A stretch of DNA of 64,000 nt from Candidatus Shapirobacteria bacterium (GCA_018062705.1 JAGORQ010000002.1:7450-71449); one strand, 5' to 3'; numbered from the stretch's first letter, positions 857 to 62,950 are shown. Numbers and translations are program-made. The notes: generated by a model from the sequence alone, not told the origin.

Positions 857-1297
857 ATGGCTACTACTATTAAAAAAACTACGGTTACTAAAAAATCTTC
901 TGCTTCCAAAGTAGGGGCTTCGCTGGCCGAAGCCCGTCCAGCCCAAACCACCAAGTCAATCAAATACTCCCATTCTAATTTGAAGGTCTCGCCCCGCAAA
1001 CTTCGTGTGTTAACTTCTGATATTAAAAAAATGGCTCCAGCACCAGCTCTTGCTCGGCTTCAGTTTACCAATACCAATGCCGGTCGTTTACTTCATGCCT
1101 GTCTCAAAACCGCTATCGCCAACGCCAAGAGTCAAAACATTCTCCCCGACACACTCAAATTTACTGAGGTTAGAGTCGACGAAGGTCAAAAGATTAAACG
1201 TATGGACAAATCTCATGGTTCTCGTTTTGCCCGCGGTATCATCATCAAACGTCACTCTCGCCTAAATATAATTTTATCTGGTACAATACAAAGTTAA
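857..1297 (+). CDS. rplV: 50S ribosomal protein L22 with N-terminal extension containing an in-frame R2 hairpin repeat
   Basis: SPRKLRVLTSDIKKMAPAPALARLQFTN...ANAKSQN L22 core; the N-terminal 40 aa include SKVGASLAEA encoded by repeat 908-935. Confidence 0.85.
   Translation: MATTIKKTTVTKKSSASKVGASLAEARPAQTTKSIKYSHSNLKVSPRKLRVLTSDIKKMAPAPALARLQFTNTNAGRLLHACLKTAIANAKSQNILPDTLKFTEVRVDEGQKIKRMDKSHGSRFARGIIIKRHSRLNIILSGTIQS
908..935. repeat. R2 palindromic hairpin, coding subtype, in frame in rplV
   Basis: aaagtaggggcttcgctggccgaagccc. Confidence 0.8.
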
Positions 1298-1409
1298 AAA
1301 AATTTAACCATTAAACCATTTATCATTTTTCATTGAAAATAAAAGAATAAAATATAATTGAATCAATGGTTAAATGGTTCAATGATAAATGAAAAATTCT
1401 TCATAAAGT
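1298..1409. repeat. R1 element, copy 2 (full)
   Basis: aatttaaccattaaaccatttatcatttttcattgaaaa...caatggttaaatggttcaatgataaatgaaaaatt. Confidence 0.85.
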
Positions 1410-2051
1410 ATGGGCAACAAAGTTAATCCAATCGGTTTCAGACTCGAAACAGTCAAAAATAGTCCAGAATGGCAATCTTCTTGGTATGCCAATTCCAAAA
1501 AATACTCCGTCTATCTCGGCGAGGACAAAAAGATCAGAGATTTTATCCAAAAGAAATTAGCTTCTGCTGGTATCGTTTCTACTCGAATTGAGCGTTCTAC
1601 CAAAAAAATGAAAATAATTTTAGTCGTATCCCGACCCGGTTTGGTCATTGGACGTGGTGGAAAAGAATTGGAAATTCTCAAAAAAGAATTGCTCAAATTC
1701 CTGACTCCAGTCTCTGGTAAACAATCACTTGATATCCAAGTTGAAGAATTCAAATATGCCGATCTCTCAGCCAAACTAATTGCCGAAAAAATAGCTTTCC
1801 AACTAGTCAAACGCATGCCCTATCGTCGAGTTGTCCTTTCCACCATGGAAAAAACCATGAGTAGTGGAGCCAAGGGTATCAAAATCCAATTAGGTGGACG
1901 TATCAATGGTGCCGAAATTAGTCGTCGCGAAAAGTTTTCCCAAGGTAAAGTTCCTCTCTCAACTATCAGATCAAAAATTGATTATGCTGAATGTCCTGCG
2001 CTCACTCGCTCAGGTTATATCGGTGTTAAAGTTTACCTATGCTTAGCATAA
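1410..2051 (+). CDS. rpsC: 30S ribosomal protein S3
   Basis: MGNKVNPIGFRL hallmark, KH domain; position after L22. Confidence 0.92.
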   Translation: MGNKVNPIGFRLETVKNSPEWQSSWYANSKKYSVYLGEDKKIRDFIQKKLASAGIVSTRIERSTKKMKIILVVSRPGLVIGRGGKELEILKKELLKFLTPVSGKQSLDIQVEEFKYADLSAKLIAEKIAFQLVKRMPYRRVVLSTMEKTMSSGAKGIKIQLGGRINGAEISRREKFSQGKVPLSTIRSKIDYAECPALTRSGYIGVKVYLCLA

Positions 2052-2162
2052 ATTTAACCATTAAACCATTTATCATTTTTCATTGAAAACAAAAGAATAA
2101 GTAAATAATTGAATCAATGGTTAAATGGTTCAATGTTACAATGATAAATTTTTCAAATAATT
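2052..2162. repeat. R1 element, copy 3 (full)
   Basis: Near-identical to copy 2. Confidence 0.85.
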
Positions 2163-2567
2163 ATGCTACAACCTTCAAGAACAAAATATCGTAAACAATT
2201 CCGTGGCCGGATGCGCGGTCTTTCTCAAGGTCATTCAGTTGAGTTTGGTGAATATGGTCTCAAATCAACCGAATGTGGCTGGTTAACTGCCAATCAAATT
2301 GAAGCCGCTCGTCGCGCTATTGCTCATGCCACCAAAAGAAATGGTCGTATGTGGTGCCGAGTATTTCCTGACAAACCATTTACCGAAAAAGGCGCTGGCG
2401 CTCCATTAGGTGCTGGCAAGGGTGATGTCAAAGGTTATGTTTGTGTCGTCAAGCCAGGCCGGGTAATGTTTGAGATTAGTGGTGTGACTGCCGACGAAGC
2501 CAAAATCGCGATGCGTTTGGCTGCCGCTAAATTACCAGTTGTTTCCAAATTTGTTACTCGTATTTAA
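2163..2567 (+). CDS. rplP: 50S ribosomal protein L16
   Basis: MLQPSRTKYRKQFRGRMRG...; operon order. Confidence 0.92.
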   Translation: MLQPSRTKYRKQFRGRMRGLSQGHSVEFGEYGLKSTECGWLTANQIEAARRAIAHATKRNGRMWCRVFPDKPFTEKGAGAPLGAGKGDVKGYVCVVKPGRVMFEISGVTADEAKIAMRLAAAKLPVVSKFVTRI

Positions 2568-2578
2568 TCCTAGATTTT

Positions 2579-2776
2579 ATGAAAAAAACTGATAAAATTT
2601 CCTACAGACAAAAGGCTCCTGCAGAATTGACCAAATTATTGGCCGATTCAAAAAAGCGTTTGGTCGAAACTCGTGCCAAACAATCAACTGGCAACCTCAA
2701 AGACACCTCCGTCTTCAAAAAAATAAAATACGAGATAAATTATATCTTGACCCTTCTTACTCAAAATGGAAAATAA
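2579..2776 (+). CDS. rpmC: 50S ribosomal protein L29
   Basis: 65 aa, L29-like helical protein between L16 and S17. Confidence 0.8.
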   Translation: MKKTDKISYRQKAPAELTKLLADSKKRLVETRAKQSTGNLKDTSVFKKIKYEINYILTLLTQNGK

Positions 2777-3032
2777 TACAGGCAAAACATTCACCGGTAT
2801 AGTCACTTCAGACAAAATGAACAACACCATTGTTGTTACCTTAAGCTACACCTTCCGCCATCCTAAATACAAAAAAATCGTTAAGAAGAATAAAAAAATC
2901 TATTCTGAAAATAATTTATCCGCCAAAACTGGTGACACTGTTACCGTTCGGGAAACTCGTCCTTTATCCAAACTCAAAAGATTTACCACCGTTACTATCG
3001 TTAAGAAAGGAGTTGAAGTCGATCAGATATAA
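2766..3032 (+). CDS. rpsQ: 30S ribosomal protein S17
   Basis: GIVTSDKMNNTIVVTL...TGDTVTVRETRPLSKLKRF; 11-nt overlap with rpmC. Confidence 0.9.
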   Translation: MENNTGKTFTGIVTSDKMNNTIVVTLSYTFRHPKYKKIVKKNKKIYSENNLSAKTGDTVTVRETRPLSKLKRFTTVTIVKKGVEVDQI

Positions 3033-3095
3033 TATATCTTCAACCATTCCAATGGTTAAATGATAAATGATAAATGATAAATTTTTCAAATAATT
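3033..3095. repeat. R1 element, copy 4 (right-half only)
   Basis: ccaatggttaaatgataaatgataaatgataaatttttcaaataatt. Confidence 0.6.
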
Positions 3096-3464: not shown

Positions 3465-3466
3465 CT

Positions 3467-3787: not shown

Positions 3788-3789
3788 TT

Positions 3790-4326: not shown

Positions 4327-4343
4327 TTTTTAAATTTAATTTA

Positions 4344-4529: not shown

Positions 4530-4535
4530 ATTATT

Positions 4536-8758: not shown

Positions 8759-9343
8759 ATGCCGTTAAACCTTTTTATCATTGGACCGTCCGGCTGTGGT
8801 AAAACTACCCAGGCCAAGCTGATTGCTGAAAAATACAAAATTGATCACTTGTCCATGGGTCAGCTTCTCCGCGATGAAATCACCAAAGGTAGTGGTTTTG
8901 GAATTGAAGCCAAAAAATATATCGACGATGGCAAGCTCGTCCCCGATGATTTAGTCTTTGATGTTCTGATTACCAAGCTCAAGGCTCTCAATTTCGATAA
9001 TTTTATAATTGACGGTTTTCCCCGGGTCTTAAACCAAGGTCGGATTATTGAATATTATCTTCGCAAAAATAACATGCCGATTACTGCCCTAATTCACTTA
9101 AGTGTCACCTTTGCTGAAATTTCTGCCCGAAGGGCTAAAATGGGGGATTCATTTCAAGATAAAACCCGCACCGACAATTCCCCCGAAGATATTGCTAGTC
9201 GTCAAAAATTCTATGATGACAATATCGAAGGTATCCGCGACTATTTCACCCGCAAAAGCGAATTTATCGATATCGACGGCAACCGCCCCATCGAGCCCAT
9301 ATTTGCCGATGTTATTAAGGCAATAGATAAATTAAGAAAGTAA
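8759..9343 (+). CDS. adk: adenylate kinase
   Basis: IIGPSGCGKTTQAKLIAEKY P-loop; LID/NMP regions. Confidence 0.9.
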   Translation: MPLNLFIIGPSGCGKTTQAKLIAEKYKIDHLSMGQLLRDEITKGSGFGIEAKKYIDDGKLVPDDLVFDVLITKLKALNFDNFIIDGFPRVLNQGRIIEYYLRKNNMPITALIHLSVTFAEISARRAKMGDSFQDKTRTDNSPEDIASRQKFYDDNIEGIRDYFTRKSEFIDIDGNRPIEPIFADVIKAIDKLRK

Positions 9344-9369
9344 AGTAGGGGCTCGACTTGCTCGAGCCC
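9341..9369. repeat. R2 hairpin, intergenic subtype, after adk stop
   Basis: taaagtaggggctcgacttgctcgagccc. Confidence 0.8.
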
Positions 9370-9378
9370 AAAAATCAA

Positions 9379-9780
9379 ATGCTCGAAATTCCTGAAGAAA
9401 TTAAAAAACTCTGCGAAAAGTCCATTATCGCTTTTTCGACTTGCTCACCAACCGGACAACCAAACACTGTGGCTGTAGCTTGTGCTGTTGCCATTTCTCC
9501 AAATCAAGTTTTAGTCACCGATAATTTTTTCAATAAAACCAGACAAAATCTAATAAACAATCAACAGGTTTCACTAACATTCTGGAATTTAGAACAAAGT
9601 TTAGACGGTGCCGGTTACCAATTTAAAGGTACGGCTCAAGTAATTACGACCGGAGAGTTAAAAGAAAAAGTTGATCAAATGGAATGTAATCAAGGTTTAG
9701 CTCACAAAGCGGCTATACTTGTAACCATCACAGAAATCTGGGATTTAGCCAATCCGCATTTAATTTGTCAAGAAACTTAA
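9379..9780 (+). CDS. pyridoxamine 5'-phosphate oxidase-like FMN-binding split-barrel protein (putative)
   Basis: AFSTCSPTGQPNTVAVACAVAISPNQVLVTDNFFNKTRQNL; the track start 9358 lies inside the R2 repeat, so ATG 9379 is preferred. Confidence 0.5.
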   Translation: MLEIPEEIKKLCEKSIIAFSTCSPTGQPNTVAVACAVAISPNQVLVTDNFFNKTRQNLINNQQVSLTFWNLEQSLDGAGYQFKGTAQVITTGELKEKVDQMECNQGLAHKAAILVTITEIWDLANPHLICQET

Positions 9781-18510: not shown

Positions 18511-18600
18511 ACAATAATCTTACACTATAAATTACTAAATCTTAACGTGCATTTGGTTGCTTCGATTCGCTTGATTTCAACCTGTCAATGGCATTTCCAT

Positions 18601-18629
18601 GTAGAGACGCCCCGCGGGGCGTCTCTTTT
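18601..18629. repeat. R4 hairpin gtagagacg CCCCGCGGGG cgtctct
   Basis: Perfect palindrome in the divergent intergenic region; relatives at 37591 and 58895. Confidence 0.7.
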
Positions 18630-20096: not shown

Positions 20097-20156
20097 CCCC
20101 CTCTTTCGTCAAAGTCGAAGATATCGCTTCAGCGATGAGGGGGTAGGGGGAGATTT
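20097..20156. repeat. R3 hairpin (long variant with inner hairpin) after gltX
   Basis: ccccctctttcgtcaaagtcgaagatatcgcttcagcgatgagggggtagggggagattta. Confidence 0.7.
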
Positions 20157-20162
20157 AATTTT

Positions 20163-32736: not shown

Positions 32737-32777
32737 TCCCCCTCCCAAATCTGGGAGGGGCAGAGGTGGGTGATTTT
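32737..32777. repeat. R3-like hairpin after the collagen-like gene
   Basis: tccccctcccaaatctgggaggggcagaggtgggtgatttt. Confidence 0.6.
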
Positions 32778-36990: not shown

Positions 36991-37473
36991 ATGACAATTA
37001 CTCATCATCAAGTCAATCAGCCAGGTCCTACCGACAAAATATATTTCTATCCCAAAGAGTATTATGTTTTCGACAATTTCTCTTCATTCCAAGTGGAATG
37101 GCAAGGAGTTCTTTGGCCCACCTCCGAACATGCTTTTCAAGCGGTTGGCTTTTTTGACACCGCACCAGATGTTTACGAAAAAATAAAATTAACTCGATCA
37201 GCCCACGATGCTCAAAAAATTGCTCATGAAAATAAAGATAAGTTGCCTGCAGAATGGGATAAAATTAATGTCGGCATTATGATGGATATTTTGCGTCACA
37301 AAATTGACCAACATCCTTACGTTCTCAAAAAACTTCTTCAATCAGGCGATAGAGAAATCATCGAAGACTCCTGGCGCGATCCTGTTTGGGGTTGGGGTGA
37401 ACATCAAGATGGTCAAAATCTGCTTGGCAAAATCTGGATGGAATTGCGAAAGGAATATCAATCCAAAAAATAA
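36991..37473 (+). CDS. NADAR (YbiA-like, DUF1768) domain protein
   Basis: FYPKEYYVFDNFSSFQVEW...WPTSEHAFQA...WGWGEHQDGQNLLGKIWMELR. Confidence 0.8.
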   Translation: MTITHHQVNQPGPTDKIYFYPKEYYVFDNFSSFQVEWQGVLWPTSEHAFQAVGFFDTAPDVYEKIKLTRSAHDAQKIAHENKDKLPAEWDKINVGIMMDILRHKIDQHPYVLKKLLQSGDREIIEDSWRDPVWGWGEHQDGQNLLGKIWMELRKEYQSKK

Positions 37474-37474
37474 T

Positions 37475-37504
37475 CCACCGTAGGGGCTCAACTTGCTTGA
37501 GCCC
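37475..37504. repeat. R2 hairpin (variant)
   Basis: ccaccgtaggggctcaacttgcttgagccc + ttttt. Confidence 0.8.
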
Positions 37505-37535: not shown

Positions 37536-37590
37536 GACCGTTTTTCTGTCAATCAAACTTTGATTATTCCCAAACCTATCCCGTATTTTC

Positions 37591-37615
37591 GTAGAGACGG
37601 CATATATGCCGTCTC
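37591..37615. repeat. R4 hairpin gtagagacgg catatatg ccgtctc
   Basis: Same arms as 18601 and 58895. Confidence 0.7.
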
Positions 37616-37633: not shown

Positions 37634-37663
37634 CCACCGTAGGGGCTCGACTTGCTCGAGCCC
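37634..37663. repeat. R2 hairpin
   Basis: ccaccgtaggggctcgacttgctcgagccc. Confidence 0.8.
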
Positions 37664-37668: not shown

Positions 37669-38076
37669 TTAATTTATCTTTCTCACCTCACCCTCTGTCA
37701 TTTGTATTAGTTCATCCATACTCGTCTCAAACACCGCATTGTTTTTCCCCGAGCTTGCCCAAATTTTGTCATATTTGCCCAGATCAATATCAATATAAGT
37801 TTTAAACTTCTCCTTGTGTCCCCACGGTGCCACTCCACCAATCACCATCCAGGTTTTTTCTTTGACAAAATCAGCATCGGCTTTTTGTAAACCCAACTTC
37901 TTCTCGTCCACCCGATTAACTCCCGAGGCGATCACCAATACAGGTTGGCCAGTTTCGTCTTTAAAAATGAGTGATTTGGCAATTTGCGCCACCTTACAAC
38001 CAATTTGTGTCGCCGCCTCTTGTGCCGTCCTCGTCAACTCTTTAAAAACTATCTCATTAGGAAAAATACTTTTCAT
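37669..38076 (-). CDS. YbaK/ProX-like aminoacyl-tRNA deacylase
   Basis: LIFKDETGQPVLVIASGVNRVDEKKL... Confidence 0.65.
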   Translation of the reverse strand: MKSIFPNEIVFKELTRTAQEAATQIGCKVAQIAKSLIFKDETGQPVLVIASGVNRVDEKKLGLQKADADFVKEKTWMVIGGVAPWGHKEKFKTYIDIDLGKYDKIWASSGKNNAVFETSMDELIQMTEGEVRKIN

Positions 38077-38088: not shown

Positions 38089-38125
38089 CCCCCTCTTATC
38101 AAAGAGGGGGTAGGGGGAGATTTAA
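38089..38125. repeat. R3 hairpin (canonical)
   Basis: tccccctcttatcaaagagggggtagggggagattta. Confidence 0.75.
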
Positions 38126-38656: not shown

Positions 38657-39892
38657 ATGAAGAGTGTTGTTACCCCCTCCCTGTCAAGGGAGGGGGATAG
38701 GGGGAGGATTGAAGATGTTAAGGAGGGGACCGAGGGGTGGATTAGTAAATCAAAAAAAATTACTCCGTACCTGATAGTTGTTGTATTAGCCATTGCTCTA
38801 GCCTATTTTTTAGTAAGTTTTTTTCAATTAAAACAAGTTTTCGTCACCGCCACCAAACCCAAAAATCCTACCCCTACCTCAGTTCAACCAACTCCAACAC
38901 TGGATCCCGACCGACCAGTATCTATTTTGTTGCTCGGTTATGGCGGAGGCACCCATGATGGAGGCAGTCTCACTGATTCAATTATGTTGGCTGAAGTTCG
39001 CCCTCACGATCAACAAGTCGACCTAATTTCCATCCCTCGCGATTTATGGGTCGAGCTCCCTGTGGGCAACACCACACCATTTTTTTCCAAAATAAATGCC
39101 GCCTATGTAATTGGCAGTGACGATCGACGTTATCCCCACAAATCGGCCGAATTTACTGGACCAGCCGGTGGTGGTGAAATGGCCAAAACAGTTGTTTCCC
39201 AAATTACCGGCAAAAAAATTGACTATTTTCTAGCCATCGATTTCCAAGGTTTTGTCAAAGTTATTGATCAGCTTGGTGGTATTGATCTCAAGGTCACCCG
39301 TCCACTTGATGACCCTTTTTACCCAATTGATGTCGGCACTACTGATATTTGTGGCAAGTCAGCCGAAGAAATAACCGCTATTACTGCCACTATGTCTGGT
39401 GAAAAACTCGAGCATGCCTTTACCTGTCGATACGAAAATCTCCATTTTGGTGTCGGCACCACTCATGTTGATGGTGCGACTGCTCTCAAGTTTGCCCGTT
39501 CCCGCCACGCTCCCAACGATGGTGGTGATTTTAATCGAGCCACTCGCCAGCGCCAAGTCATTATGGCAGTCAAAACCAAAGCCTTGACTCTCAATTCTTT
39601 TAGCAAAATCTTCTCGATTATTAAAACCCTTTCTTATCATGTTCGCACTGATCTAACACCTCTGGTCATCGAAAGTTATCTGCCTCGAGCCGTCGAATTT
39701 TCCAATTACAAAATAAACTCTCTACCACTAACCGACAAAACAGTTTTAAAAATTGATGTTAGTGTCGACCGTCAATCAATTTTGGTCCCCACTGGCGGTA
39801 TTGGTCAATACGATTATATTCATCAATATCTCCAAAATCCTTCAATTCTGACTCCAACAATAACCCCAACCCCTTCTCCAATTATTAATTAG
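38657..39892 (+). CDS. LytR-CpsA-Psr (LCP) family protein with in-frame R3 hairpin repeat near N-terminus
   Basis: ILLLGYGGGTHDGGSLTDSIMLAEV...LISIPRDLWVELP...KINAAY; repeat 38673-38710 encodes VTPSLSREGDRGRIE. Confidence 0.75.
   Translation: MKSVVTPSLSREGDRGRIEDVKEGTEGWISKSKKITPYLIVVVLAIALAYFLVSFFQLKQVFVTATKPKNPTPTSVQPTPTLDPDRPVSILLLGYGGGTHDGGSLTDSIMLAEVRPHDQQVDLISIPRDLWVELPVGNTTPFFSKINAAYVIGSDDRRYPHKSAEFTGPAGGGEMAKTVVSQITGKKIDYFLAIDFQGFVKVIDQLGGIDLKVTRPLDDPFYPIDVGTTDICGKSAEEITAITATMSGEKLEHAFTCRYENLHFGVGTTHVDGATALKFARSRHAPNDGGDFNRATRQRQVIMAVKTKALTLNSFSKIFSIIKTLSYHVRTDLTPLVIESYLPRAVEFSNYKINSLPLTDKTVLKIDVSVDRQSILVPTGGIGQYDYIHQYLQNPSILTPTITPTPSPIIN
38673..38710. repeat. R3 hairpin in frame in the LCP gene
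   Basis: ccccctccctgtcaagggagggggatagggggaggatt. Confidence 0.75.
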
Positions 39893-43672: not shown

Positions 43673-44415
43673 TAGATATCAAATTTATTAAAGCCTTCAT
43701 ACTTACTAAACGATAGTAAATAAATACTTTTAAGTAGATTTGGTGATATAGCTTTAAGTTCACTAAATACCGTGTTGGTTTTATTTCTGTCTTTCATTGA
43801 ATGAATAACATCATCAAGGATTATTGGTAGTTTTTCACATAAGTTTTTAAATGAGTCTTTTTGGCTTGTAACGATTTCGTAAAACTTATCGATTGAAATT
43901 TTTCTGATTCTCTCGTCTGATACAGTTTCACTGTCGAGTGATACTTTCCATATTTCATTTTGACTCTTTTTTGCAATAACTTCTACGAGAGCACAAGTGG
44001 CTTGTTTATCTTTGGCAACTTTACTCATCATTCTCATATATGTTTTTTGAGAAGATGAAGAGTTCATTGTGTTGTGCTTATTTTTCATTTCAACATAGAA
44101 ATGTAATTTTTCATTTACGACATCATAGCCGTGTGTCGGAACAGTCCAAGCTGAATCAATATACTTGAATAGGTTTTGATGAAAATATCCAATTTCGTTT
44201 GTGTTTGTTTTGTCTATTTGTCTGATAATTTCACTTTCAATTGTGTCTTCAATACTTTTACTGTAAATTTTTGAATCAAATGTCATTTTAATGGGATCAA
44301 TTAAGTTCTTGTTAAATGTTGACAGTGATATATCAAAACGATATTTTTCAACAGTATTCTTTACATGGTTGTAAATATCTTTGTCAGCAATAAAACCAAG
44401 ATTATATGTGTTCAT
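43672..44415 (-). CDS. hypothetical protein, candidate type II restriction endonuclease
   Basis: Immediately downstream of, and co-oriented with, the C5-MTase; no recognisable motifs. Confidence 0.35.
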   Translation of the reverse strand: MNTYNLGFIADKDIYNHVKNTVEKYRFDISLSTFNKNLIDPIKMTFDSKIYSKSIEDTIESEIIRQIDKTNTNEIGYFHQNLFKYIDSAWTVPTHGYDVVNEKLHFYVEMKNKHNTMNSSSSQKTYMRMMSKVAKDKQATCALVEVIAKKSQNEIWKVSLDSETVSDERIRKISIDKFYEIVTSQKDSFKNLCEKLPIILDDVIHSMKDRNKTNTVFSELKAISPNLLKSIYLLSFSKYEGFNKFDI

Positions 44416-44419
44416 ATTG

Positions 44420-45679
44420 TTATTTAATAACTTTTAATAAATTTATGGCTACTTCTCTGACAATATTTACTCCAAGTGCATTACCGAGTAAACCAAGGCT
44501 TTTTCCATAACTTTCAGGAAATTTATATGAGTCTGGAAAACCTTGAACCCTTGCCGCTTCTCGGACTGAAAGTTGTCTATATAACTTTTTTCTGTAAATA
44601 TTTTCAACAAAATACTCTTTTTTGTCTTTAGTGTTTATTGGAATATCTATTGTGCTCACAAAATCTCTTACACCAGTTTTAGTTAAAGTTGAAAATACAT
44701 GTGAGCTTGGAGTAAATATTCGATAAATGCCGAATACACCTGACGAATTTTTTGAATTTACAAAGTCATATTTCCCATCTCGGTATAATAATATTTTTTT
44801 CTCTATGAGACTTGATAAATCATTAGTTTTTAAATTAGGAATTATTTTTTGGATGTCTGTAAAGCTTAGCGGATTACCATCTTTTGTTCCATATTTCTTT
44901 TTTCTGCGATTTTTCAATATTGCAAAACAGATATTCTTTTCATTATCATTTGTGTCTATAATGTCCCACGAATGGATTGTATGATCTCCGTTTCTAGTAT
45001 CACAAAAAGTAAAGTAATTATCTTTGTTGATTGTATATGACATCCCGAATGAATTTTTTATATTTGTGTCATTTTTTACTGATTTGTGTAAATGTGTTTT
45101 GTAATCTTCAAGTATTTCTGACATGTTTGGTAATATCTTGTATGTATCGGGAAAAACAAACTCAAGAATATTGTCTTTTTTAATTCCAACGATAAATACT
45201 CTTTCTCTGTTTTGCGGTAATCCATAATCAAAAGCATTTAACACTTTGTAGTTGACCTTGTAGCCAACTTGTTCAAATGACTCAATAATTAGTGACAAAT
45301 TTTCATGATTTCTTGGATCAGCTAAACCTTTGACATTTTCAAATATAAAAGCCTTTGGCTTAACATTTTCTACAAATTTGATTGTGTCAAACCATAAAGC
45401 TCCTCGTGGATCTTCAAAACCGTGTTTTTTTCCTGCAACTGACCACGATTGACAAGGGACACCACCAGTTATTAAATCAGCATATGGATATTTTTTGATT
45501 TTCGTAATGTCTCCTAGATTTTCTTCTTCTGATGAGTCAAAGTTAGCTGTGTATACCTGAATAGCTGTTTTATCTATTTCGGAATAGCCAACACATTTAC
45601 CGCCCTGTTCTTCCAACGCTATCCTAAAGCCACCAATACCTGCAAATAGGTCAATAAAAGTAAAATTATTTTTTGTCAT
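44420..45679 (-). CDS. DNA (cytosine-5)-methyltransferase
   Basis: FAGIGG (motif I), GGVPCQSWS (motif IV), ENV (motif VI). Confidence 0.9.
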   Translation of the reverse strand: MTKNNFTFIDLFAGIGGFRIALEEQGGKCVGYSEIDKTAIQVYTANFDSSEEENLGDITKIKKYPYADLITGGVPCQSWSVAGKKHGFEDPRGALWFDTIKFVENVKPKAFIFENVKGLADPRNHENLSLIIESFEQVGYKVNYKVLNAFDYGLPQNRERVFIVGIKKDNILEFVFPDTYKILPNMSEILEDYKTHLHKSVKNDTNIKNSFGMSYTINKDNYFTFCDTRNGDHTIHSWDIIDTNDNEKNICFAILKNRRKKKYGTKDGNPLSFTDIQKIIPNLKTNDLSSLIEKKILLYRDGKYDFVNSKNSSGVFGIYRIFTPSSHVFSTLTKTGVRDFVSTIDIPINTKDKKEYFVENIYRKKLYRQLSVREAARVQGFPDSYKFPESYGKSLGLLGNALGVNIVREVAINLLKVIK

Positions 45680-45836
45680 TATATTTAATAAATCTATCTA
45701 ATTCAATTTTATTTATTCTATATTGTCGGCCTGCTTTGACTGATTCAAGCCTTCCAGAGCGGATCCATCGGTAAACAGTGAGGTATGCAACTTTGAGCAT
45801 TTTGGAGACTTCTTCGATTGAGTAATACTTGTCCAT
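45666..45836 (-). CDS. small HTH protein (excisionase/AlpA-like or controller), 56 aa
   Basis: MDKYYSIEEVSKMLKVAYLTVYRWIRSGRLESVKAGRQYRINKIELDRFIKYNDKK; found by hand; 14-nt overlap with the MTase start. Confidence 0.6.
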   Translation of the reverse strand: MDKYYSIEEVSKMLKVAYLTVYRWIRSGRLESVKAGRQYRINKIELDRFIKYNDKK

Positions 45837-45841
45837 ATTGG

Positions 45842-47008
45842 TTATTCTAATTTAACATCATTTAACATTAAAGTGGGATAGTCAGTAAGATGAAGTGGAC
45901 GATAATCTATCAACATCTGCCTGATTGTAGGAAATAATTGAGGTAGGCGTTGATTTGTCGACCACATTTTTACTTTACTTTTATATCGATACCATTGGTC
46001 GTCGCTTTTAGTTCGAATCATTGATCTAATTTCCCTCATACTGTGGGTTTTTAATAGCTCATTGGTGGCATACATTGCCAAAATATCGATTATTGAGGCT
46101 TGCGGATTTGATACCTGTAGCTGCAACAACACTTCTTCTTTTGACTTGAATTTGGTATCGACGACTTGAGGATAGTTAGCAATTATTATGTCAAATTGAT
46201 TCAACACCACGGCCTGCGATAACTCACTTTTGAAAAGTGCTCCAAATTCTAGTGATTTGATTTCCTTACCAGCCTCGGCAATTTTCTTTTTGATCACCTC
46301 ACGTCGATTTAGTCTGACTTCAAGCCGTAGCACTTCGAATGTCGATTCCTTGTTCTTTTTAATAAGGTTATCGAGCAAATTCAATTGAACTACTGCTTCA
46401 TGTTTTTCTTCCGATTTCTTAGGACTGACTCTGGCCTGCTCAAGGTCTTTTACCTTGTCATACATAGCAAACTCAAAACTATTGGTCCGATATTTTAGAC
46501 ATATGCCTTCATTTTGATAATCGCATTTATTGAAGCCAAGTCTTTGAGTAATGTCAGCTTTTGATATTTGCTGAAGAATATATTGGCAACGATAACTATT
46601 TTCAAACACTAAGTTCTTCGAGTAGTGAATACCCGAGACTTCGGCTTGGTGTATGAAATGTGGCATGAGGAATATACCAGCCCAATCGTGGAGCCTGTCA
46701 TGAAGCCAAGGGACCAGTCTATCAATATCGGCGTCAATTACTTCATCAAAATTATTTCCATAAAGTGCCTTTGGAACTGAAAATTGAATCCTTAGACCTA
46801 GTTGTGACTTTCCAAAAACCATTCGTCGCTGAAGTGTTAAACAAGGCAAATACCCAAATAATTTGTATTCAGCAATAGTCGGATTTTTGACGATCCTGTC
46901 GTGGCCTGCTTTTTGAAATAGATCTGAAGTGGATCTAAATCCAAATTTGTTTGAGTCGGTAATGGCAAACATATTTTGCTCAATAACCAATATCACCGTG
47001 TCGATCAT
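45842..47008 (-). CDS. hypothetical, possible Rep_trans-type rolling-circle replication initiator
   Basis: FAMYDKVKD (Y-D-K) and RLEVRL (RxExR) resemble Rep_trans motifs. Confidence 0.35.
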   Translation of the reverse strand: MIDTVILVIEQNMFAITDSNKFGFRSTSDLFQKAGHDRIVKNPTIAEYKLFGYLPCLTLQRRMVFGKSQLGLRIQFSVPKALYGNNFDEVIDADIDRLVPWLHDRLHDWAGIFLMPHFIHQAEVSGIHYSKNLVFENSYRCQYILQQISKADITQRLGFNKCDYQNEGICLKYRTNSFEFAMYDKVKDLEQARVSPKKSEEKHEAVVQLNLLDNLIKKNKESTFEVLRLEVRLNRREVIKKKIAEAGKEIKSLEFGALFKSELSQAVVLNQFDIIIANYPQVVDTKFKSKEEVLLQLQVSNPQASIIDILAMYATNELLKTHSMREIRSMIRTKSDDQWYRYKSKVKMWSTNQRLPQLFPTIRQMLIDYRPLHLTDYPTLMLNDVKLE

Positions 47009-47270
47009 AATTCATTACTTCTTCAAATTTTTTTATAATTACTTCTTCAATTTCACGACCAATTTGACTGCTAATAGGGTAAATAAATGGAATGTTTTTG
47101 TCACCTATTTTTTTGTTTGGATATATCAATCTATACCCGCCTAGTGGACGGGTATGTATAGCAACTGAGCCAACATAAATAGAGTTATCAAAAACGAAGC
47201 TAGCAAAGCCAACCAAACCATTGATTGGACGAATAGGTGTGATAGATATTTCATTTATTTTTTGATTCAT
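46980..47270 (-). CDS. SpoVG-like protein
   Basis: ISITPIRPINGLVGFASFVFDNSIYVGSVAIHTRPLGGYRLIYP...PISSQIGREIEEVIIKKFEE aligns with SpoVG. Confidence 0.6.
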   Translation of the reverse strand: MNQKINEISITPIRPINGLVGFASFVFDNSIYVGSVAIHTRPLGGYRLIYPNKKIGDKNIPFIYPISSQIGREIEEVIIKKFEEVMNYDRHGDIGY

Positions 47271-47472
47271 TTTGCTTTTTTAATTTGGCAAGTTGTATGC
47301 CTTTTTTAATACTATCGATTTGAGCCTGTTTGTAGGCTGTTTCAAATGCTAGCCATAGCATTTCCTCAAATTGTGAGTTCTGATTTTGTTTCATACTTTT
47401 TCTCCTTGGCCATATTGGCCTGATCAATTTCAAATAATAATTGAACATATTCGGCAAGTTTTGATAAGTCAT
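47251..47472 (-). CDS. small hypothetical protein (start uncertain, overlaps alternative ORF 47366..47554)
   Basis: ORF track only. Confidence 0.25.
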   Translation of the reverse strand: MTYQNLPNMFNYYLKLIRPIWPRRKSMKQNQNSQFEEMLWLAFETAYKQAQIDSIKKGIQLAKLKKQNESKNK

Positions 47473-47627
47473 CAGCAGATAGGTTAAGACCCTCTGGTGT
47501 ATTGATAATTTTTGGCGTTACCTCAGTAACTCCTTGGTGGCTCCTCTCTTGCACAAATGTAGATTACAGTTGATTGATTGTGCCGTCGATTACATTGGAA
47601 AAGGTGACACTGTCACTTTCTTACATG

Positions 47628-48353
47628 TCACGATTTCGTATAGCGGTTATAAAGTTTTTTTACACTTGTGCCATTTACCTTCCCGTCTTTTACATCTTGA
47701 TCGTCAGGGTTTTCTTCACAAAGAATGTCAGCGATTTTGTCGAAAGTATTTTTCTTTGATTCATTTCTTAGCTCCACAATTCGTTTTAGTCGTTCTGCCT
47801 TATCTAATTTGGCAATGGCTGGTATTATACCCTTGTAGTGATCAAACACTTGACCAACTATTTCACCTCCCTTTTCGTCAACCCAATCTTTTAATCCAGA
47901 AATAGTAATCGGTCCATGAATTTTAATTTTTAGCCAAAGTGAGTGGTCGGCAAAGTTATGGTCGGTCTGATATTTATATGATGATGAAATTCGATAGGAC
48001 CCAATCTCTCTTCGTTTACTTGCCTTTTTTAATTGTTCGTCAGCATATGGGGCAATGCCTGATTCTATGATCATCTCTAAGTCTGATTCACTTCCATCCA
48101 GTCCATATTCTTTTGCCATGTCGTAAATCAGCTTGGTATATTCCTTAAATAATTTGTCGCATTGGAACATCCTTTGATCAAACTTAAAAGTATTTCTCCA
48201 ATTTACCGTATCTTCCTCAAATCCTTCCATGCCATATTTATTTCTAATCTCATCAACTTTTGCCTTAAAATCCTTATTACATAAATACAGTAATTCAACT
48301 TTTGGTGATAGTTTATCATTAGCCATTTCTTTACATCTTGAATTATCAAACAC
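47628..48353 (-). CDS. hypothetical protein (island cargo)
   Basis: 241 aa, no recognisable motifs. Confidence 0.5.
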   Translation of the reverse strand: MFDNSRCKEMANDKLSPKVELLYLCNKDFKAKVDEIRNKYGMEGFEEDTVNWRNTFKFDQRMFQCDKLFKEYTKLIYDMAKEYGLDGSESDLEMIIESGIAPYADEQLKKASKRREIGSYRISSSYKYQTDHNFADHSLWLKIKIHGPITISGLKDWVDEKGGEIVGQVFDHYKGIIPAIAKLDKAERLKRIVELRNESKKNTFDKIADILCEENPDDQDVKDGKVNGTSVKKLYNRYTKS

Positions 48354-54692: not shown

Positions 54693-54757
54693 ACTTTTTT
54701 CGTAAAGTAGGGGTTTGCCTGCCTGCCGACAGGTAGGATTAAATGATATAATTCCTC

Positions 54758-55789
54758 ATGAATCTCCCCCAAGTACAGGCTTTTTTAAAAGAGTCTGGTC
54801 AACCAGATTACCGTTTTCGCCAAATTTCCAAAAACTATTTTTCTGGTCGCTATCAAAGCTTTTTGGAGATGACTGATCTGCCTTTGAATTTGCGTGAATC
54901 ACTCAACACCAATTCACCATTACTTTCTGTCACTCTCGACAAAATAATTGATAGTCCCAACACTCACAAAGCCCGCCTTACCCTTTCTGATGGCAAACAA
55001 ATTGAAACTGTCCTAATGGACTACGGTAGCTGGTCGACTGTCTGTGTCAGCTCCCAGGTTGGTTGTGCTCTAGGTTGTACTTTTTGCGCTACCGGCAAAA
55101 TGGGCTTTACCCGAAATTTAACTCCCGAAGAAATTGTTGACCAAATAATTTTTTGGAAATATTATTTACATAAAAGTAAAGTAGGGGCTTCGCTGGCCGA
55201 AGCCCACGAGGGGGGTTTAAGAATTGTTTTCATGGGCATGGGTGAACCCTTTCTCAATTTTGACAACTTCGTCTCCGCCACCACAATCATCAATAGTCCC
55301 GAGGGCTTAAATATTGGTCAACGCAAAATGAGTGTCTCTACTGCTGGTGTCGTTCCTGGCATCAAAAAATTTATGGAGCTGGACACCCAAATTAATTTGG
55401 CCATTTCCCTCCATTCAGCTGACCAAGCCACCCGCGCCCAAATGATGCCTATCGCTCGTCAATATACTCTGGACGAATTAATTCCTGCTATCAAAGATTA
55501 TGCCGACAAAACTAATCGTCAGGTGTTTTTTGAATATCTTTTGGCCAAAAACATCAACGATACACCGTTTCACCTAGATCTGCTCATCGACCTAATGTCT
55601 CAACACAAACTTTTTTACCTCAATCTCATCCCCCTCAATCCTATCAAGGGTGGGCTCACCCCCAGCGCCCAGTCTACTTTAAATAACTTTGAAACTGAAT
55701 TAACCCGTCACCACATCAACTATTCCATCCGCCAATCCTTGGGACAATCAGCCGCCTCCGCCTGTGGCCAACTTATAGTCGAAAAATAG
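54758..55789 (+). CDS. rlmN: 23S rRNA/tRNA adenine-C2 methyltransferase RlmN (radical SAM) with in-frame R2 hairpin repeat
   Basis: CVSSQVGCALGCTFCATG; repeat 55175-55206 encodes HKSKVGASLAEAHE. Confidence 0.85.
   Translation: MNLPQVQAFLKESGQPDYRFRQISKNYFSGRYQSFLEMTDLPLNLRESLNTNSPLLSVTLDKIIDSPNTHKARLTLSDGKQIETVLMDYGSWSTVCVSSQVGCALGCTFCATGKMGFTRNLTPEEIVDQIIFWKYYLHKSKVGASLAEAHEGGLRIVFMGMGEPFLNFDNFVSATTIINSPEGLNIGQRKMSVSTAGVVPGIKKFMELDTQINLAISLHSADQATRAQMMPIARQYTLDELIPAIKDYADKTNRQVFFEYLLAKNINDTPFHLDLLIDLMSQHKLFYLNLIPLNPIKGGLTPSAQSTLNNFETELTRHHINYSIRQSLGQSAASACGQLIVEK
55175..55206. repeat. R2 hairpin, coding subtype, in frame in rlmN
   Basis: aagtaaagtaggggcttcgctggccgaagccc. Confidence 0.8.
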
Positions 55790-56825: not shown

Positions 56826-56830
56826 GGTTT

Positions 56831-57377: not shown

Positions 57378-57381
57378 GTCC

Positions 57382-58299: not shown

Positions 58300-58321
58300 T
58301 AGTCATATTTTACCCTAAAAC

Positions 58322-58822: not shown

Positions 58823-58894
58823 ATTCTACTTGTTGTCACAAGTATCTGGTTGGCCCATCTGGCTTTGTACCTGGTGTAATGTCTGAGATTCCCC

Positions 58895-58922
58895 TGTAGA
58901 GACGGGGCACGCCCCGTCTCTT
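58895..58922. repeat. R4 hairpin ctgtagagacggggcacgccccgtctctt upstream of lon
   Basis: Same arms as 18601. Confidence 0.7.
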
Positions 58923-58979
58923 AAGTTGTTGTTAATTTAGTTCTTGCCACCTAGCAAACCACATGTTAGACTGCTAAAT

Positions 58980-61361
58980 ATGACTGAAAACCAACCACTC
59001 ATCGAGTCTCAAAACAATGAAGTTGCCTTGCAACCTGTCAAGAAAGTTTTACCATTAATTCCTCTCCGCAACCTGATCCTCTTCCCTTCAGTCGAGACCT
59101 CTCTTTTCTTTGGTCGCAAAGAATCGATGAATGCCCTGCTTCATGCCTACGACAACACCAATAAGTTAGTCATTATCACCACCCAAAAGAATTCCAAAAC
59201 CGAAAAGCCCGAGCTTTCCGATCTTTACACTGTCGGTGTCCTCGCCAAAATCGAACATATTCTTCATACCGATGGTTCACTTCACGCCATTGTTCGTGGT
59301 GTCTCTCGAGTCAATATCGTTAATTTAAATCAGACCGATCCTTTTTATACAGTCGAATTTGTTGATTTACCTATCATCCCCGAGTCAGTCACCGACATTC
59401 AACAAACCGCCCAGGCTCTCATGGATCAGCTCAAAAAAGCTTTTGCCATGGGTCGTCAATTCGATCTACCAGCCATGATGCAGTTATCTACTGGTGTTAG
59501 TAGTAGCGACCTAGCCGACCAAGTCTCTTTTTCGGTTGAAGCTAAATTAACCGAAAAACAGGCGATGTTGGAAATGCTTCTGGTCAGTCAGCGAATTAGA
59601 AGTTGTACCGAATTTTTGGTTCGGGAGATGAAAGTGGCCGAGCTCGAGCGCCAAATTGAAGACAAAACCCAAGAAAAATTCAATGTCAACATGAAGCGCA
59701 ATGTTTTAGAAGAGCGCAAACATCAAATCGAAAAAGAACTCAAAAAATTAGGTAATAGTGGTGGCAGTGATACCAACGATTTGGAGCGCAAAATCCGCAA
59801 ATCCAAGATGCCCAAAAGCATCAAGAAAAAAGTCTTAAAAGAGTTTCATCGGCTCGAAGAAATGGGCTCAATGTCCCCCGAATCTAGCTATATTCGCACT
59901 TATTTAGAAACGGTCTTAGAAATGCCCTGGGGCAAATATTCTCAATCAAAACTCAGTCTCAAACAAGCTGAAAAAGTCCTTGAAGACGAACATTACGGCC
60001 TCAAAGATGTCAAAGACAGAATTCTCGAATACCTTTCTGTTATCAAACTCAAAGAAAAAAACAAATCATCTGACACCGGCGCCACTGCCAACATTCTTTG
60101 TTTTATTGGTCCTCCGGGGGTTGGTAAAACCTCACTAGGTAAATCCATAGCCAGGTCTTTGGGTCGCGAATTTGTTCGTGCCTCTCTTGGTGGTATTCGG
60201 GATGAAGCCGAAATCCGCGGTCACCGTCGCACCTACGTCGGTGCCATGCCTGGTCGAATCGTCAAAGGTCTCAAAGACGCCAAATCGATGAATCCAGTGT
60301 TTATGCTAGATGAAGTCGACAAAATTGGCGCCGATTATCGGGGTGACCCGTCCGCCGCCCTGTTGGAAACGCTCGATCCCGAGCAAAACCGCGAATTTGC
60401 CGATCATTACCTTGATTTTCCCCTAGATTTATCCAAAGTCTTTTTTATTCTCACTGGCAACGAAGTTAGCACAATTCCCTATGCACTCCGCGACCGGCTA
60501 GAAATTATCAACTTTAGCGGTTACACCCAAGAAGAAAAATTCCACATCGCCAAAAAATATTTGGTCGGCAAAGAATTGGTCGCCAACGGTCTCAGCCCCA
60601 AGCATATCAAAGAAATCAAAGACGACACACTTCGCTTTATCATCGACAAATACACCCGTGAAGCTGGTGTCCGTACTCTCGATCGCACTATTGCCACCTT
60701 GTTTCGCAAGGTAGCCAAACAAATAGTTGCTGGTAAATCAAAAGTAGTTGATTTAAACGATATTAAAATAATCAAAAAATTCCTCGGACCCGAAAAATTT
60801 TCTTCCCAACTTAAGGGTAAAAAAGATGAAGTCGGTGTTAGTACTGGCCTAGCTTGGACTAGTGTTGGTGGTGATATTTTATTTATCGAAGTCAACATTA
60901 TGCCTGGAAAAGGTTCTCTCATACTCACCGGAAAACTCGGTTCGGTAATGAAGGAATCCTGTCAAGCTGCGGTGTCTTTTGTTAGATCTCAGGCAAAAGA
61001 ATGGGGGATTAAACAAGATTTTCACAAAATTGATATTCATATTCATGTTCCCGAGGGTGCTACCCCCAAGGATGGTCCCAGCGCCGGCGGTGCTATCACC
61101 ACAGCGCTAGTTTCTGCGCTCAAGGAGGTGCCGATGCCTCGTGATATTGGTATGACTGGTGAAATTACTCTTCGGGGAAATATCTTAGAAATTGGCGGGC
61201 TCAAAGAAAAATCAATTGCCGCTCATCGGGCTGGTCTTCGGACAGTTTTTATCCCCAAGGATAATCAAAAATCTTTAGTTGATGTCCCCTCCGAAGTCAA
61301 AAAAGCCATCAAATTCATCCCCGTCGAACACTACAGCGAAATTTACAAAAAGATTTTTTAA
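58980..61361 (+). CDS. lon: ATP-dependent protease Lon
   Basis: GPPGVGKTSLGKSIA, catalytic PKDGPSAG; ATG 58980 (MTENQ) is preferred over the track 58944. Confidence 0.9.
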   Translation: MTENQPLIESQNNEVALQPVKKVLPLIPLRNLILFPSVETSLFFGRKESMNALLHAYDNTNKLVIITTQKNSKTEKPELSDLYTVGVLAKIEHILHTDGSLHAIVRGVSRVNIVNLNQTDPFYTVEFVDLPIIPESVTDIQQTAQALMDQLKKAFAMGRQFDLPAMMQLSTGVSSSDLADQVSFSVEAKLTEKQAMLEMLLVSQRIRSCTEFLVREMKVAELERQIEDKTQEKFNVNMKRNVLEERKHQIEKELKKLGNSGGSDTNDLERKIRKSKMPKSIKKKVLKEFHRLEEMGSMSPESSYIRTYLETVLEMPWGKYSQSKLSLKQAEKVLEDEHYGLKDVKDRILEYLSVIKLKEKNKSSDTGATANILCFIGPPGVGKTSLGKSIARSLGREFVRASLGGIRDEAEIRGHRRTYVGAMPGRIVKGLKDAKSMNPVFMLDEVDKIGADYRGDPSAALLETLDPEQNREFADHYLDFPLDLSKVFFILTGNEVSTIPYALRDRLEIINFSGYTQEEKFHIAKKYLVGKELVANGLSPKHIKEIKDDTLRFIIDKYTREAGVRTLDRTIATLFRKVAKQIVAGKSKVVDLNDIKIIKKFLGPEKFSSQLKGKKDEVGVSTGLAWTSVGGDILFIEVNIMPGKGSLILTGKLGSVMKESCQAAVSFVRSQAKEWGIKQDFHKIDIHIHVPEGATPKDGPSAGGAITTALVSALKEVPMPRDIGMTGEITLRGNILEIGGLKEKSIAAHRAGLRTVFIPKDNQKSLVDVPSEVKKAIKFIPVEHYSEIYKKIF

Positions 61362-62458
61362 CGTAAAGTAGGGGCTCGACTAGCTCGAGCCCGACCAGTG
61401 GTGTCTCTTTGAGTTGATAAAGAAGATATCCCCACCGCCAAATAAAAAAACAAATACTCGTTAATATTCACCACATTTACTGCCGAAATAAACAAGAAAC
61501 CAACTAAACAAAGCAGGGCATTTACCTGTCTTGCCCTATACAATCTCAAAAGCGCTTCAGCACACAACCAGGCATAAATAACCATTGCCGGCACTCCGCC
61601 AGCCACACCCATTTCCAGCCATTCGTTATGAGCCTTGTCCACTCGAATATTTTTCAAGTCAAAGTCATTTTGTTTCAAAGTTGAACCAAATGCTACCTCA
61701 AAATTTTCTACTCCCCAGCCAAAAACTGGCTTTTTGGCTATAGCCTCGATGCCCCTTTGCCAAATTACACCTCTTTGGTCAAAGCTGGAAACTTCTCTTT
61801 TAGGGTAAATCAAAATTCCGGAAATCAAACAGAATACTCCAGCCAACACCAGCAATCTTCTATTCAATACTCTTTGCCATAGCTTTACAGCAATTATCAT
61901 CCCAAATGCGATTAAAGCTGATCGTGAGCCGGTCAGCCAAATTCCACCACCAATTATCCCCAACAGCCACCAATTATTAATAAAAGGCGATGTTAAGGCC
62001 AAATAGCCTCCTGCAAAATTAGGATTACCCAAAAAACCAGCTACCCGGCCATCAGCACCAGCGAATTTCTGGAAAAATATCAACAAGGTCACCAAGCTAG
62101 CCCCCACTGTCATAATTGTACCTAGTTTTTCCAAAATTTTATTCCTATTTAGCTTTGCTACCAACCAGTACCAACCCAAATAACCTACCATAGTAATTAA
62201 ACCTTGATACCTGTAATATTGCCCAAAAAAACTGTTTGGATTTCCATTAACCAATGAGCAGATAAGTAACCAGCCTAACATTATCAAGATTAACTTATCT
62301 AGTTTAGTAAAACTCTTGACAGACCTATAATAATATGGTATAACTAACCCAATTACAAACAAAAACAACAGAATTTTTGGCAGTTCAAATTTATCATAAA
62401 ATCCGCTCCAAAATACCTGTGGCAAAATTATGAACAAAAAAGTTGTTAGCCAAACCAT
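61358..62458 (-). CDS. O-antigen ligase (Wzy_C)-like polytopic membrane protein
   Basis: ...WLTGSRSALIAFGMIIAV...; the track ORF extends to 62794, but its N-terminal 112 aa (VGV repeats) are the shadow of the opposite PT-linker gene, so the start at 62458 is inferred. Confidence 0.55.
   Translation of the reverse strand: MVWLTTFLFIILPQVFWSGFYDKFELPKILLFLFVIGLVIPYYYRSVKSFTKLDKLILIMLGWLLICSLVNGNPNSFFGQYYRYQGLITMVGYLGWYWLVAKLNRNKILEKLGTIMTVGASLVTLLIFFQKFAGADGRVAGFLGNPNFAGGYLALTSPFINNWWLLGIIGGGIWLTGSRSALIAFGMIIAVKLWQRVLNRRLLVLAGVFCLISGILIYPKREVSSFDQRGVIWQRGIEAIAKKPVFGWGVENFEVAFGSTLKQNDFDLKNIRVDKAHNEWLEMGVAGGVPAMVIYAWLCAEALLRLYRARQVNALLCLVGFLFISAVNVVNINEYLFFYLAVGISSLSTQRDTTGRARASRAPTLR
61363..61392. 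repeat. R2 hairpin after lon stop
   Basis: gtaaagtaggggctcgactagctcgagccc. Confidence 0.8.
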
Positions 62459-62906
62459 CTTCTTTTTATTATTCTCTTTTATTGCTCCACTATCAATCAT
62501 TAGCCACACTTGGAATGTAAATGCTGTTAGTCCATTAACCTCACCAATTACCCCACCCACTACACCTTTTCCCACACTACCTTTAACTCCTCCATTAACT
62601 TCGCCAGTTACGCCTACTATTATCCCGACGATTATCCCAACCACCACACCTACACTTATACCCACCAATACTCCAACAAATAGACCTACAAATACCCCAA
62701 CCGTTACTCCAACAAATAAGCCAATCTGCAAGACCGGCGTCAATAGTTTTGCCGTCTCTGGGTATTGCAAAAAGGGATTGGCTAGCTCAGTCAAATTTAC
62801 CTGCTACGATGGCTATACTAAATCTGTCAAAGGTGTTTGCGCTCCAGTTTCCAGTTGGAAAATGCTCGTCACTCTAACTTGCATGAATCACAAAGTCTGT
62901 CGCTAA
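62430..62906 (+). CDS. secreted PT-linker protein with C-terminal Cys-rich domain
   Basis: Signal peptide, [23 protein letters not shown], then CKTG...C...C...C. Confidence 0.55.
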   Translation: MNKKVVSQTIFFLLFSFIAPLSIISHTWNVNAVSPLTSPITPPTTPFPTLPLTPPLTSPVTPTIIPTIIPTTTPTLIPTNTPTNRPTNTPTVTPTNKPICKTGVNSFAVSGYCKKGLASSVKFTCYDGYTKSVKGVCAPVSSWKMLVTLTCMNHKVCR

Positions 62907-62920
62907 AAAACTGTAGTGAA

Positions 62921-62950
62921 GTAAAGTAGGGGCTCGACTTGCTCGAGCCC
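62921..62950. repeat. R2 hairpin between convergent genes
   Basis: gtaaagtaggggctcgacttgctcgagccc. Confidence 0.8.

Follow-up and report, generated by a model that had tools for sequence, protein, structure and literature searches.

REP (repetitive extragenic palindromic) sequences tagged with GTAG have been grouped into 24 families in eight phyla (Di Nocera et al. 2013, PMC3733652). According to that survey, the sub-families differ by complementary changes in the stem, the copies lie near gene 3′ ends, and some families are dominated by singletons. Inverted dimers are thus a common feature of such REPs without being an obligatory one. Intragenic in-frame copies have been described as well, most of them in Opitutus terrae, and the supplement of the same paper lists REP-encoded peptides that include VGAGLPA and VGASLLA. 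Here we have analysed a 64-kb stretch of DNA (hereafter the window) from a Candidatus Shapirobacteria bacterium (GCA_018062705.1, JAGORQ010000002.1:7450-71449) that carries a short hairpin repeat, R2, both beside stop codons and in frame inside rplV and rlmN. We conclude that R2 is very probably a GTAG-tagged REP family of Ca. Shapirobacteria, within the Microgenomates of the Candidate Phyla Radiation (CPR), that is presumably spread and/or maintained by the REP-associated tyrosine transposase (RAYT) of this lineage. An initial annotation of the window had described the hairpins while overlooking this identity. GTAG-tagged REPs with a RAYT, including intragenic in-frame copies, are already known; new are the host lineage, the conserved Shapirobacteria REP-RAYT locus, the target genes, which encode uL22, RlmN and ValRS, and the recurrence of insertions at the RlmN loop. 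No report linking REPs or RAYTs with CPR bacteria was found in the literature searched.

R2 is a family of GTAG-tagged hairpins with covarying stems and seven copies in the window

The whole window was searched with a degenerate 25-mer that covers both subtypes of R2 (GTAGGGGCTYVRCTNGCYBRAGCCC; in general form, GTAG + GGGCTnnn-CTNGC-nnnAGCCC), allowing up to 3 mismatches. The search returned sites at 911, 9345, 37480, 37639, 55181, 61368 and 62926, each with 0 mismatches and each on the plus strand, while 100 dinucleotide-preserving shuffles of the window, whose G+C content is 40.7%, returned 0 sites. A scan for any 8-bp stem closing a CTNGC loop recovered the same seven R2 sites and one unrelated A/T-rich hairpin. 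The seven copies counted in the initial annotation are therefore exact, with 7 perfect sites against 0 expected by chance. Within the window R2 is thus dispersed and multi-copy (7 per 64 kb), and the five extragenic copies all have a stop codon 0-6 nt away.

Each R2 unit is 25-32 nt long and consists of a GTAG head, mostly preceded by GTAAA, an 8-bp G+C-rich stem and a conserved CTNGC loop; the full prefix reads GTAAAGTAG. In all seven window copies the head is unpaired, the stem is perfect over 8 bp and the loop measures 5 nt, which replaces the geometry of 9 bp with 3 or 4 nt first assigned to the hairpin. Unit and stem fall in the ranges that define GTAG-tagged REPs, 20-40 bp for the palindrome and 5-13 bp for the stem. 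Folding energies range from -14 to -19 kcal/mol. Subtype A has the form GGGCTCGA-CTTGC-TCGAGCCC, and subtype B (CTTCG/CGAAG) has the form GGGCTTCG-CTGGC-CGAAGCCC. A variant, A′ (GGGCTCAA/TTGAGCCC), departs from subtype A by a single pair, changed from G-C to A-T.

Variation in the inner three or four stem pairs takes the form of compensatory changes only. We aligned 20 REPs, namely the window copies, coding copies of relatives and copies flanking RAYT genes. In this set, 160 of 160 stem cells are paired, both sides have changed in 4 of the 8 pairs, and the covariation score is 0.49, compared with 0.19 for shuffled and at most 0.12 for slid controls. The GTAG head, present in 19 of the 20 (the remaining one has GTAA), and the CTNGC loop stay fixed while the stems change. 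The earlier proposal that the variants form a single repeat family with compensatory stems is supported.

Two other identities were considered and rejected. Miniature inverted-repeat transposable elements measure 70-300 bp and have terminal inverted repeats and target-site duplications, and the R2 unit is much too short to be one of them; R2 also fails to match the Rickettsia-type consensus of Rickettsia palindromic elements (RPEs). Outside the prefix and hairpin, the R2 copies of the window share no similarity, and duplicated flanks are not seen.

Plus-strand orientation is common to all seven copies, a variant site at 54704 and the three members of another GTAG-tagged family described below, including copies that adjoin minus-strand genes. 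Such a one-strand orientation would fit a strand-specific mechanism acting on single-stranded DNA, as known for HUH/Y1 enzymes. GC skew is negative across the whole window, which fits a single replichore but is at odds with the leading-strand orientation that ribosomal operons usually have.

A probable RAYT gene lies between inverted R2-type REPs in related Shapirobacteria

In the LacPavin metagenome-assembled genome (MAG) of a Ca. Shapirobacteria member (locus L021), an open reading frame (ORF) of 155 aa lies between two inverted R2-type REPs, the heads of which point toward the gene. The product passed the Pfam Y1_Tnp model with 26.9 bits (cutoff 23), and its best NCBIfam model is REP_Tyr_transpos (NF047646; E = 3e-16), which scored 59.5 bits where the IS200 model scored 22. 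Orthologues were found at 54-94% identity, with source annotations that in some cases read RayT or Shapirobacteria transposase, and in these proteins the HUH motif MPNHxH and one Tyr are invariant. Across five related loci the Shapirobacteria-type RAYT measures 145-170 aa, and orthologous loci keep the order tatD / RAYT / 80-aa gene / tsaD. Inverted R2-type REPs stand on both sides of the gene in L021, L152/153, L154 and L155/156, while L150/151 has the upstream REP only. A PDB sequence search with the RAYT gave no match.

The RAYT gene of these relatives ends with the codons GTA AAG TAG, so that the GTAG head supplies its stop codon. These letters equal the conserved prefix of the window copies, GTAAAGTAG, which thus corresponds to the 3′ end of the RAYT gene.

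Two further observations concern RAYT homologues and the surroundings of the L021 gene. In two homologues from other lineages (P0258 and P0259), VGATLAVA...RAGARPAPT just past the HUH strand looks like an in-frame REP dimer inside the RAYT gene. At 2720-4935 of L021, the neighbouring housekeeping genes metG and tatD both encode SKSPFD(K/R)GDF, a peptide that has the look of one more palindromic insertion in frame.

A pattern scan of public genomes found the R2-type 25-mer in Shapirobacteria (L014 and L021) and in one more MAG of the Patescibacteria (L013). Stems that closely resemble it occur in MAGs of Verrucomicrobiota, Opitutaceae and Kiritimatiellia, with near-identical 25-mers GTAGGGGCTTCGCTCGCCGAAGCCC. 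Among the matches listed in a scan of metagenomes, many further stems were built on the GTAGGGGCT...AGCCC frame. Many of the metagenome matches, for example in a conserved human-gut gene, have just the 5 pairs imposed by the pattern and were treated as chance. As a separate observation, nine contigs (60-69% G+C) of the Kiritimatiellia MAG JBIIYJ01 (within L004-L023) each carry GTAGGGGCTCCGCT(C/T)GCCGGAGCCC, a REP family whose head, outer stem and loop are almost identical to those of Shapirobacteria R2 despite the distance between the phyla.

The coding copies of rplV and rlmN are in-frame insertions judging from orthologues

The stretches 908-935 and 55178-55205 are the same 28 nt (AAAGTAGGGGCTTCGCTGGCCGAAGCCC), and both are in frame and read S-KVGASLAEA, in rplV and rlmN respectively, just as the initial annotation had noticed. 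Exactly the same two proteins are encoded in an independent Logan assembly of SRR11088367.

The VGASLAEA peptide occurs in none of 119 listed L22 orthologues, all of which have a Lys/Thr/Val/Ala-rich N-terminal extension of variable length. The MATTIKKTT start of rplV is common to orthologues, several of which begin MATTIKKT, and no ATG, GTG or TTG stands between the repeat and the conserved KYSHSNLKVSPRK motif. Because there is no alternative start before this motif and the start in use is shared with orthologues, the rplV repeat must be translated.

In RlmN, the spacing from RNLT to MGMGEP is 32-35 aa in most orthologues versus 46 in the window protein, and when the protein is aligned with the solved RlmN 6fz6, a gap of 9 residues coincides with the insert. 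The insert peptide is not found in 118 of 119 RlmN orthologues; in P0006, a distant orthologue with 59% identity, this loop reads NVGASLAEAR, seen at the protein level only. The orthologue comparison thus found a peptide that L22 and RlmN orthologues do not share, and it left standing the view that the 10-aa segment is inserted rather than ancestral. Judged from sequence, the two coding copies are genuine insertions in indel-tolerant segments of L22 and RlmN.

Different inserts occupy the RlmN segment concerned in many other Microgenomates. Between RNLT..DQI and MGMGEP, the orthologues P0002-P0120 show at least five types of insert, for example EAISTGLPRHFVPRNDA, SPLSKGEAPAKAGERDL, PPFLKGGARRAEDL and VIARSAATWQS. 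For four of these loop inserts the DNA was at hand (loci L146-L149), and it forms 3 strong hairpins (-22 to -41 kcal/mol) and 1 weak one (-12.4). Several unrelated palindromic families might use the α1-β2 loop of RlmN as a landing site across the lineage.

Coding copies in relatives keep the frame and, in one gene, the nucleotides

Read through the full prefix GTAAAGTAG, frame 1 gives GTA AAG TAG and frame 2 gives G TAA, and the only open sense frame is (S)KVGA... The common frame of the coding copies is thus forced, a stop codon (TAG or TAA) closing each of the remaining sense frames. Relatives contain further in-frame REPs in this same frame. In valS of Shapirobacteria UBA4809 (L014) the repeat reads KVGASLAGA and corresponds to a 6-aa gap in the comparison with ValRS 1gax; in a glycosyltransferase gene of L114 and L115 it has a third stem type and reads KVGALLAKA and NVGALLAKA.

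The two glycosyltransferase genes also tell how the repeat fares relative to its surroundings. Located at orthologous codons, the repeat is identical at 25 of 25 positions between L114 and L115, while the flanks are 66% identical over 227 aligned positions and the prefix has diverged; at the divergence of the flanks, 25 straight identities have a chance of ~3e-5. This conservation lends support to the earlier suggestion that hairpins are kept up within coding DNA, and it points to selection on nucleotides, repeated insertion or homogenisation, which are not separable here. Tentatively, CPR REP hairpins inside essential genes might be more than passive passengers, their nucleotide sequence being actively preserved through RAYT-dependent homogenisation or through selection for the hairpin in DNA or RNA. 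If so, REP/RAYT would be a shaper of protein sequence in streamlined genomes.

Placement of the copies in the window

Table 1. R2 copies, the variant site and the two genes with in-frame copies (window coordinates)
Feature	Position	Strand	Remarks
rplV (uL22), 146 aa	857..1297	+	Lys/Thr/Val/Ala-rich N-terminal extension typical of Microgenomates
R2 subtype B	908..935	+	GTAG 911-914, stem 915-922/928-935, CTGGC loop; read in frame as KVGASLAEA within the N-terminal tail of rplV
R2 subtype A	9340..9369	+	GTAAAGTAG + GGGCTCGA-CTTGC-TCGAGCCC; no terminator-like site
R2 variant A′	37475..37504	+	starts 2 nt past the NADAR-domain gene (36991-37473); followed by TTTTT; the only terminator-like copy
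R2 subtype A	37634..37663	+	ends 5 nt short of the stop codon of a YbaK-like tRNA-editing gene on the minus strand (37669-38076)
Variant site	54702..54745 (site 54704)	+	prefix cgtAAAGTAGGGG with another hairpin, CCTGCCTG-CCGA-CAGGTAGG; between the thioredoxin gene and the rlmN start
rlmN, radical-SAM 23S rRNA/tRNA methyltransferase, 343 aa	54758..55789	+	otherwise intact, full length
R2 subtype B	55175..55205	+	full prefix aGTAAAGTAG; in frame in rlmN, residues ~140-149, SKVGASLAEA
R2 subtype A, loop CTAGC	61363..61392	+	starts 2 nt past the lon stop (61359-61361)
R2 subtype A	62921..62950	+	ends 4 nt from the minus-strand argS stop (62955); upstream of the minus-strand Wzy-like gene (start 62794)

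Some of the intergenic copies (Table 1) share nucleotides with the neighbouring genes. The stop codon of adk (TAA, 9341-9343) falls inside the conserved prefix (GTAAAG) of the copy at 9340-9369, and a Wzy-like ORF on the minus strand (61358-62794) owes its last 11 codons (RARASRAPTLR*) to the complement of the copy after lon. The copies at 37475 and 37634 form a head-to-tail pair 159 nt apart, both with TCCACC in place of GTAAA. The last copy, at 62921, had been placed between convergent genes; argS and the Wzy-like gene are in fact both on the minus strand and co-directional. Pfam families found on ORFs that adjoin R2 copies include NADAR, YbaK-like, Wzy_C, ArgRS, PNPOx and others, and the Rfam families found in the window amount to a tRNA only.

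Concerning the neighbourhood of adk, the copy at 9340-9369 is located at the junction with an ORF of the pyridoxamine 5′-phosphate oxidase (PNPOx-like) family, at 9358-9780, which comes after adk at the usual place of map/infA in the spc-alpha ribosomal cluster.

Other repeats and regions of the window

A second GTAG-tagged palindromic family is present at 18599-18626, 37590-37615 and 58894-58921, all on the plus strand, built as GTAG and AGACG, an inner stem and CGTCT. The inner stems are fully compensated (GCCC-CGCG-GGGC, GGGG-CACG-CCCC and GCA-TATA-TGC), and the sites are found upstream of the gltX catalytic domain, within the convergent gap at 37.5 kb and upstream of lon. Another type of repeat, at 20135-20160, 38089-38125, 32739-32760 and 38673-38700, is a CCCCCTC(C/T)-loop-GGAGGGGG hairpin followed by (A)TAGGGGGAGATTTAA; the copy at 38673 lies inside the N-terminus of a LytR_cpsA_psr ORF. 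This hairpin repeat is probably the source of the PPFLKGG/SPLSKGE-type peptides of CPR proteins. Finally, a stretch of low G+C content (33.8%) at ~44000-48000 encodes a DNA methylase, a small helix-turn-helix protein and ORFs without Pfam matches, and may be a mobile or restriction-modification island.

Alternative explanations

Several explanations other than a REP/RAYT system have to be weighed. The hairpins could be mainly functional RNA, that is, intrinsic terminators or mRNA 3′-end stabilisers selected at gene ends, with the coding copies being incidental. As expected under this explanation, the hairpins are stable and each of the five intergenic copies has a stop codon at a distance of 0-6 nt, and RNA-level action of REPs has been reported in other bacteria (PMC3733652). 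When an intrinsic terminator is taken as a G+C-rich hairpin directly before a T/U tract, the copy at 37480 fits the pattern; the other four of the five intergenic copies have no T-tract, which leaves one of the five plausible terminators of the initial annotation. Moreover, the copies at 37639 and 62926 are oriented antisense to the gene at whose 3′ end they lie and still have their GTAG on the plus strand, and terminator function leaves unexplained the conserved unpaired GTAG, the conserved loop and the association with RAYT. We thus consider a primary RNA function unlikely, although an RNA role can hold as a secondary, exapted function. Still less credible, and in our view highly improbable, is that the KVGASLAEA segments are ancestral or convergent protein sequence, or that the rplV copy is untranslated and the true start lies downstream. 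The lengths of the RlmN loop and the L22 tail do vary across all lineages, so that exact insertion boundaries are not drawable. Against an ancestral peptide stand the identity of 28 nt between two unrelated genes, the match to the intergenic family and the distribution of the peptide among the orthologues of both proteins; against an untranslated copy stand the shared MATTIKKTT and the lack of a start codon before KYSHSNLKVSPRK.

The relation between the two subtypes calls for a similar weighing, because subtype B had been presented as a distinct coding subtype. A coding-adapted variant would be expected if KVGASLAEA were better tolerated than the KVGARLARA of subtype A. In agreement with this idea, subtype B accounts for 2 of 2 coding and 0 of 5 intergenic copies of the window (Fisher's exact p ~0.05, on a tiny sample), the valS copy of L014 is B-like (KVGASLAGA), and the P0006 RlmN has NVGASLAEAR at the same loop. 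Subtype A, on the other hand, is equally stop-free in the same frame and its complement forms part of the tail of the Wzy-like ORF, the coding copies of relatives use other stems (valS of L014 and, with the third stem KVGALLAKA, the glycosyltransferase of L114/L115), and L013 has a B-type stem in surroundings that are probably non-coding. In addition, the RAYT orthologue P0254 ends in HVGASLAEAQQ, so that a B-type REP probably lies at the 3′ flank of a RAYT gene as an ordinary variant of the family. Adaptation of subtype B to coding sequence is therefore doubtful; we regard it as an ordinary family variant that is not coding-specific, and the split of 2/2 versus 0/5 as suggestive at most.

Other observations weigh against the identification of R2 as a REP family served by a RAYT. 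The score of the L021 RAYT lies below the NCBIfam equivalog cutoff of 80 bits. No RAYT homologue was found in the 64-kb window, either by tblastn with the L021 RAYT or by Pfam on the ORFs that adjoin R2 copies and those at 44.7-61 kb, and the presence of a RAYT in the genome of the window is consequently unproven. Inverted REP dimers, known as bacterial interspersed mosaic elements (BIMEs) or REPINs, are absent from the window, which has singletons and the one head-to-tail pair (37480/37639). In the 15-20-kb loci of relatives, the only R2 copies are those that flank the RAYT gene, and the expansion of R2 is thus specific to some genomes. Mobility, lastly, is deduced and not directly observed.

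A model for the spread of R2 and its implications

RAYTs are HUH/Y1 enzymes that recognise a folded hairpin together with GTAG in single-stranded DNA, and R2 units would serve as substrates of this kind. The most likely mechanism is that a RAYT of the lineage, presumably also encoded in the genome of the window, moves R2 units and thereby spreads and/or maintains the copies. Going by their placement, copies would survive at two kinds of site: flush against stop codons, at 0-6 nt, or within genes, in the stop-free sense frame of a surface loop or a disordered tail, where they would add (K/N)VGAxLAxA. The copy of rplV would be accommodated in the hypervariable N-terminal tail, and that of rlmN in the loop before the MGMGEP strand.

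If this identification is right, REP/RAYT systems extend to the Candidate Phyla Radiation, and core translation genes (uL22, RlmN, ValRS) gain peptide modules from REP repeats even in very small genomes. For annotation, repeats would explain recurrent odd peptides of CPR proteins (VGAxLAxA here; PPFLKGG and similar ones in other families), and some caution is advisable: the peptides should not be taken for conserved motifs, nor the hairpins for terminators. With a REP on either side, the conserved RAYT locus also offers a defined substrate-enzyme pair for biochemistry.

Comparison with known systems

Palindromes that sit in frame within genes are known from other bacteria. Rickettsia palindromic elements (PMC3733652) are, like R2, selfish palindromes in frame in functional genes of a small genome, at surface regions. 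RPE-1 is much longer than R2, the residues it adds numbering in the tens, RPE-4 and RPE-6, which are short, carry a CGTC tag whereas R2 carries GTAG, and no dedicated transposase is known for RPEs, in contrast to REP/RAYT. The intragenic GTAG REPs of Opitutus terrae (Verrucomicrobia) come nearer to R2 in that they too lie in frame within housekeeping genes; they belong to another phylum with another G+C content, and the Opitutus-type copies lack the GTAAA prefix.

The GTAG REP/RAYT systems (PMC3733652), together with E. coli REP/BIME-TnpA_REP and Pseudomonas GTAG-1, share with R2 the unpaired GTAG and a G+C-rich stem of 6-9 bp. Compensated sub-families, sites at gene 3′ ends and, as seen for R2 in related loci, a Y1/HUH gene between inverted REPs are also common to R2 and these systems, and intragenic copies that read as VGA... 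peptides are occasional in known GTAG REPs, as they are in R2. R2 differs in its CPR/Patescibacteria host, which lies outside the phyla of the survey, in its 5-nt CTNGC loop and in the extra 5′ GTAAA extension that is identical to the end of the RAYT gene. It differs further in that the window holds singletons of the same orientation without BIME/REPIN dimers, and in that the genes hit are those of a ribosomal protein and rlmN.

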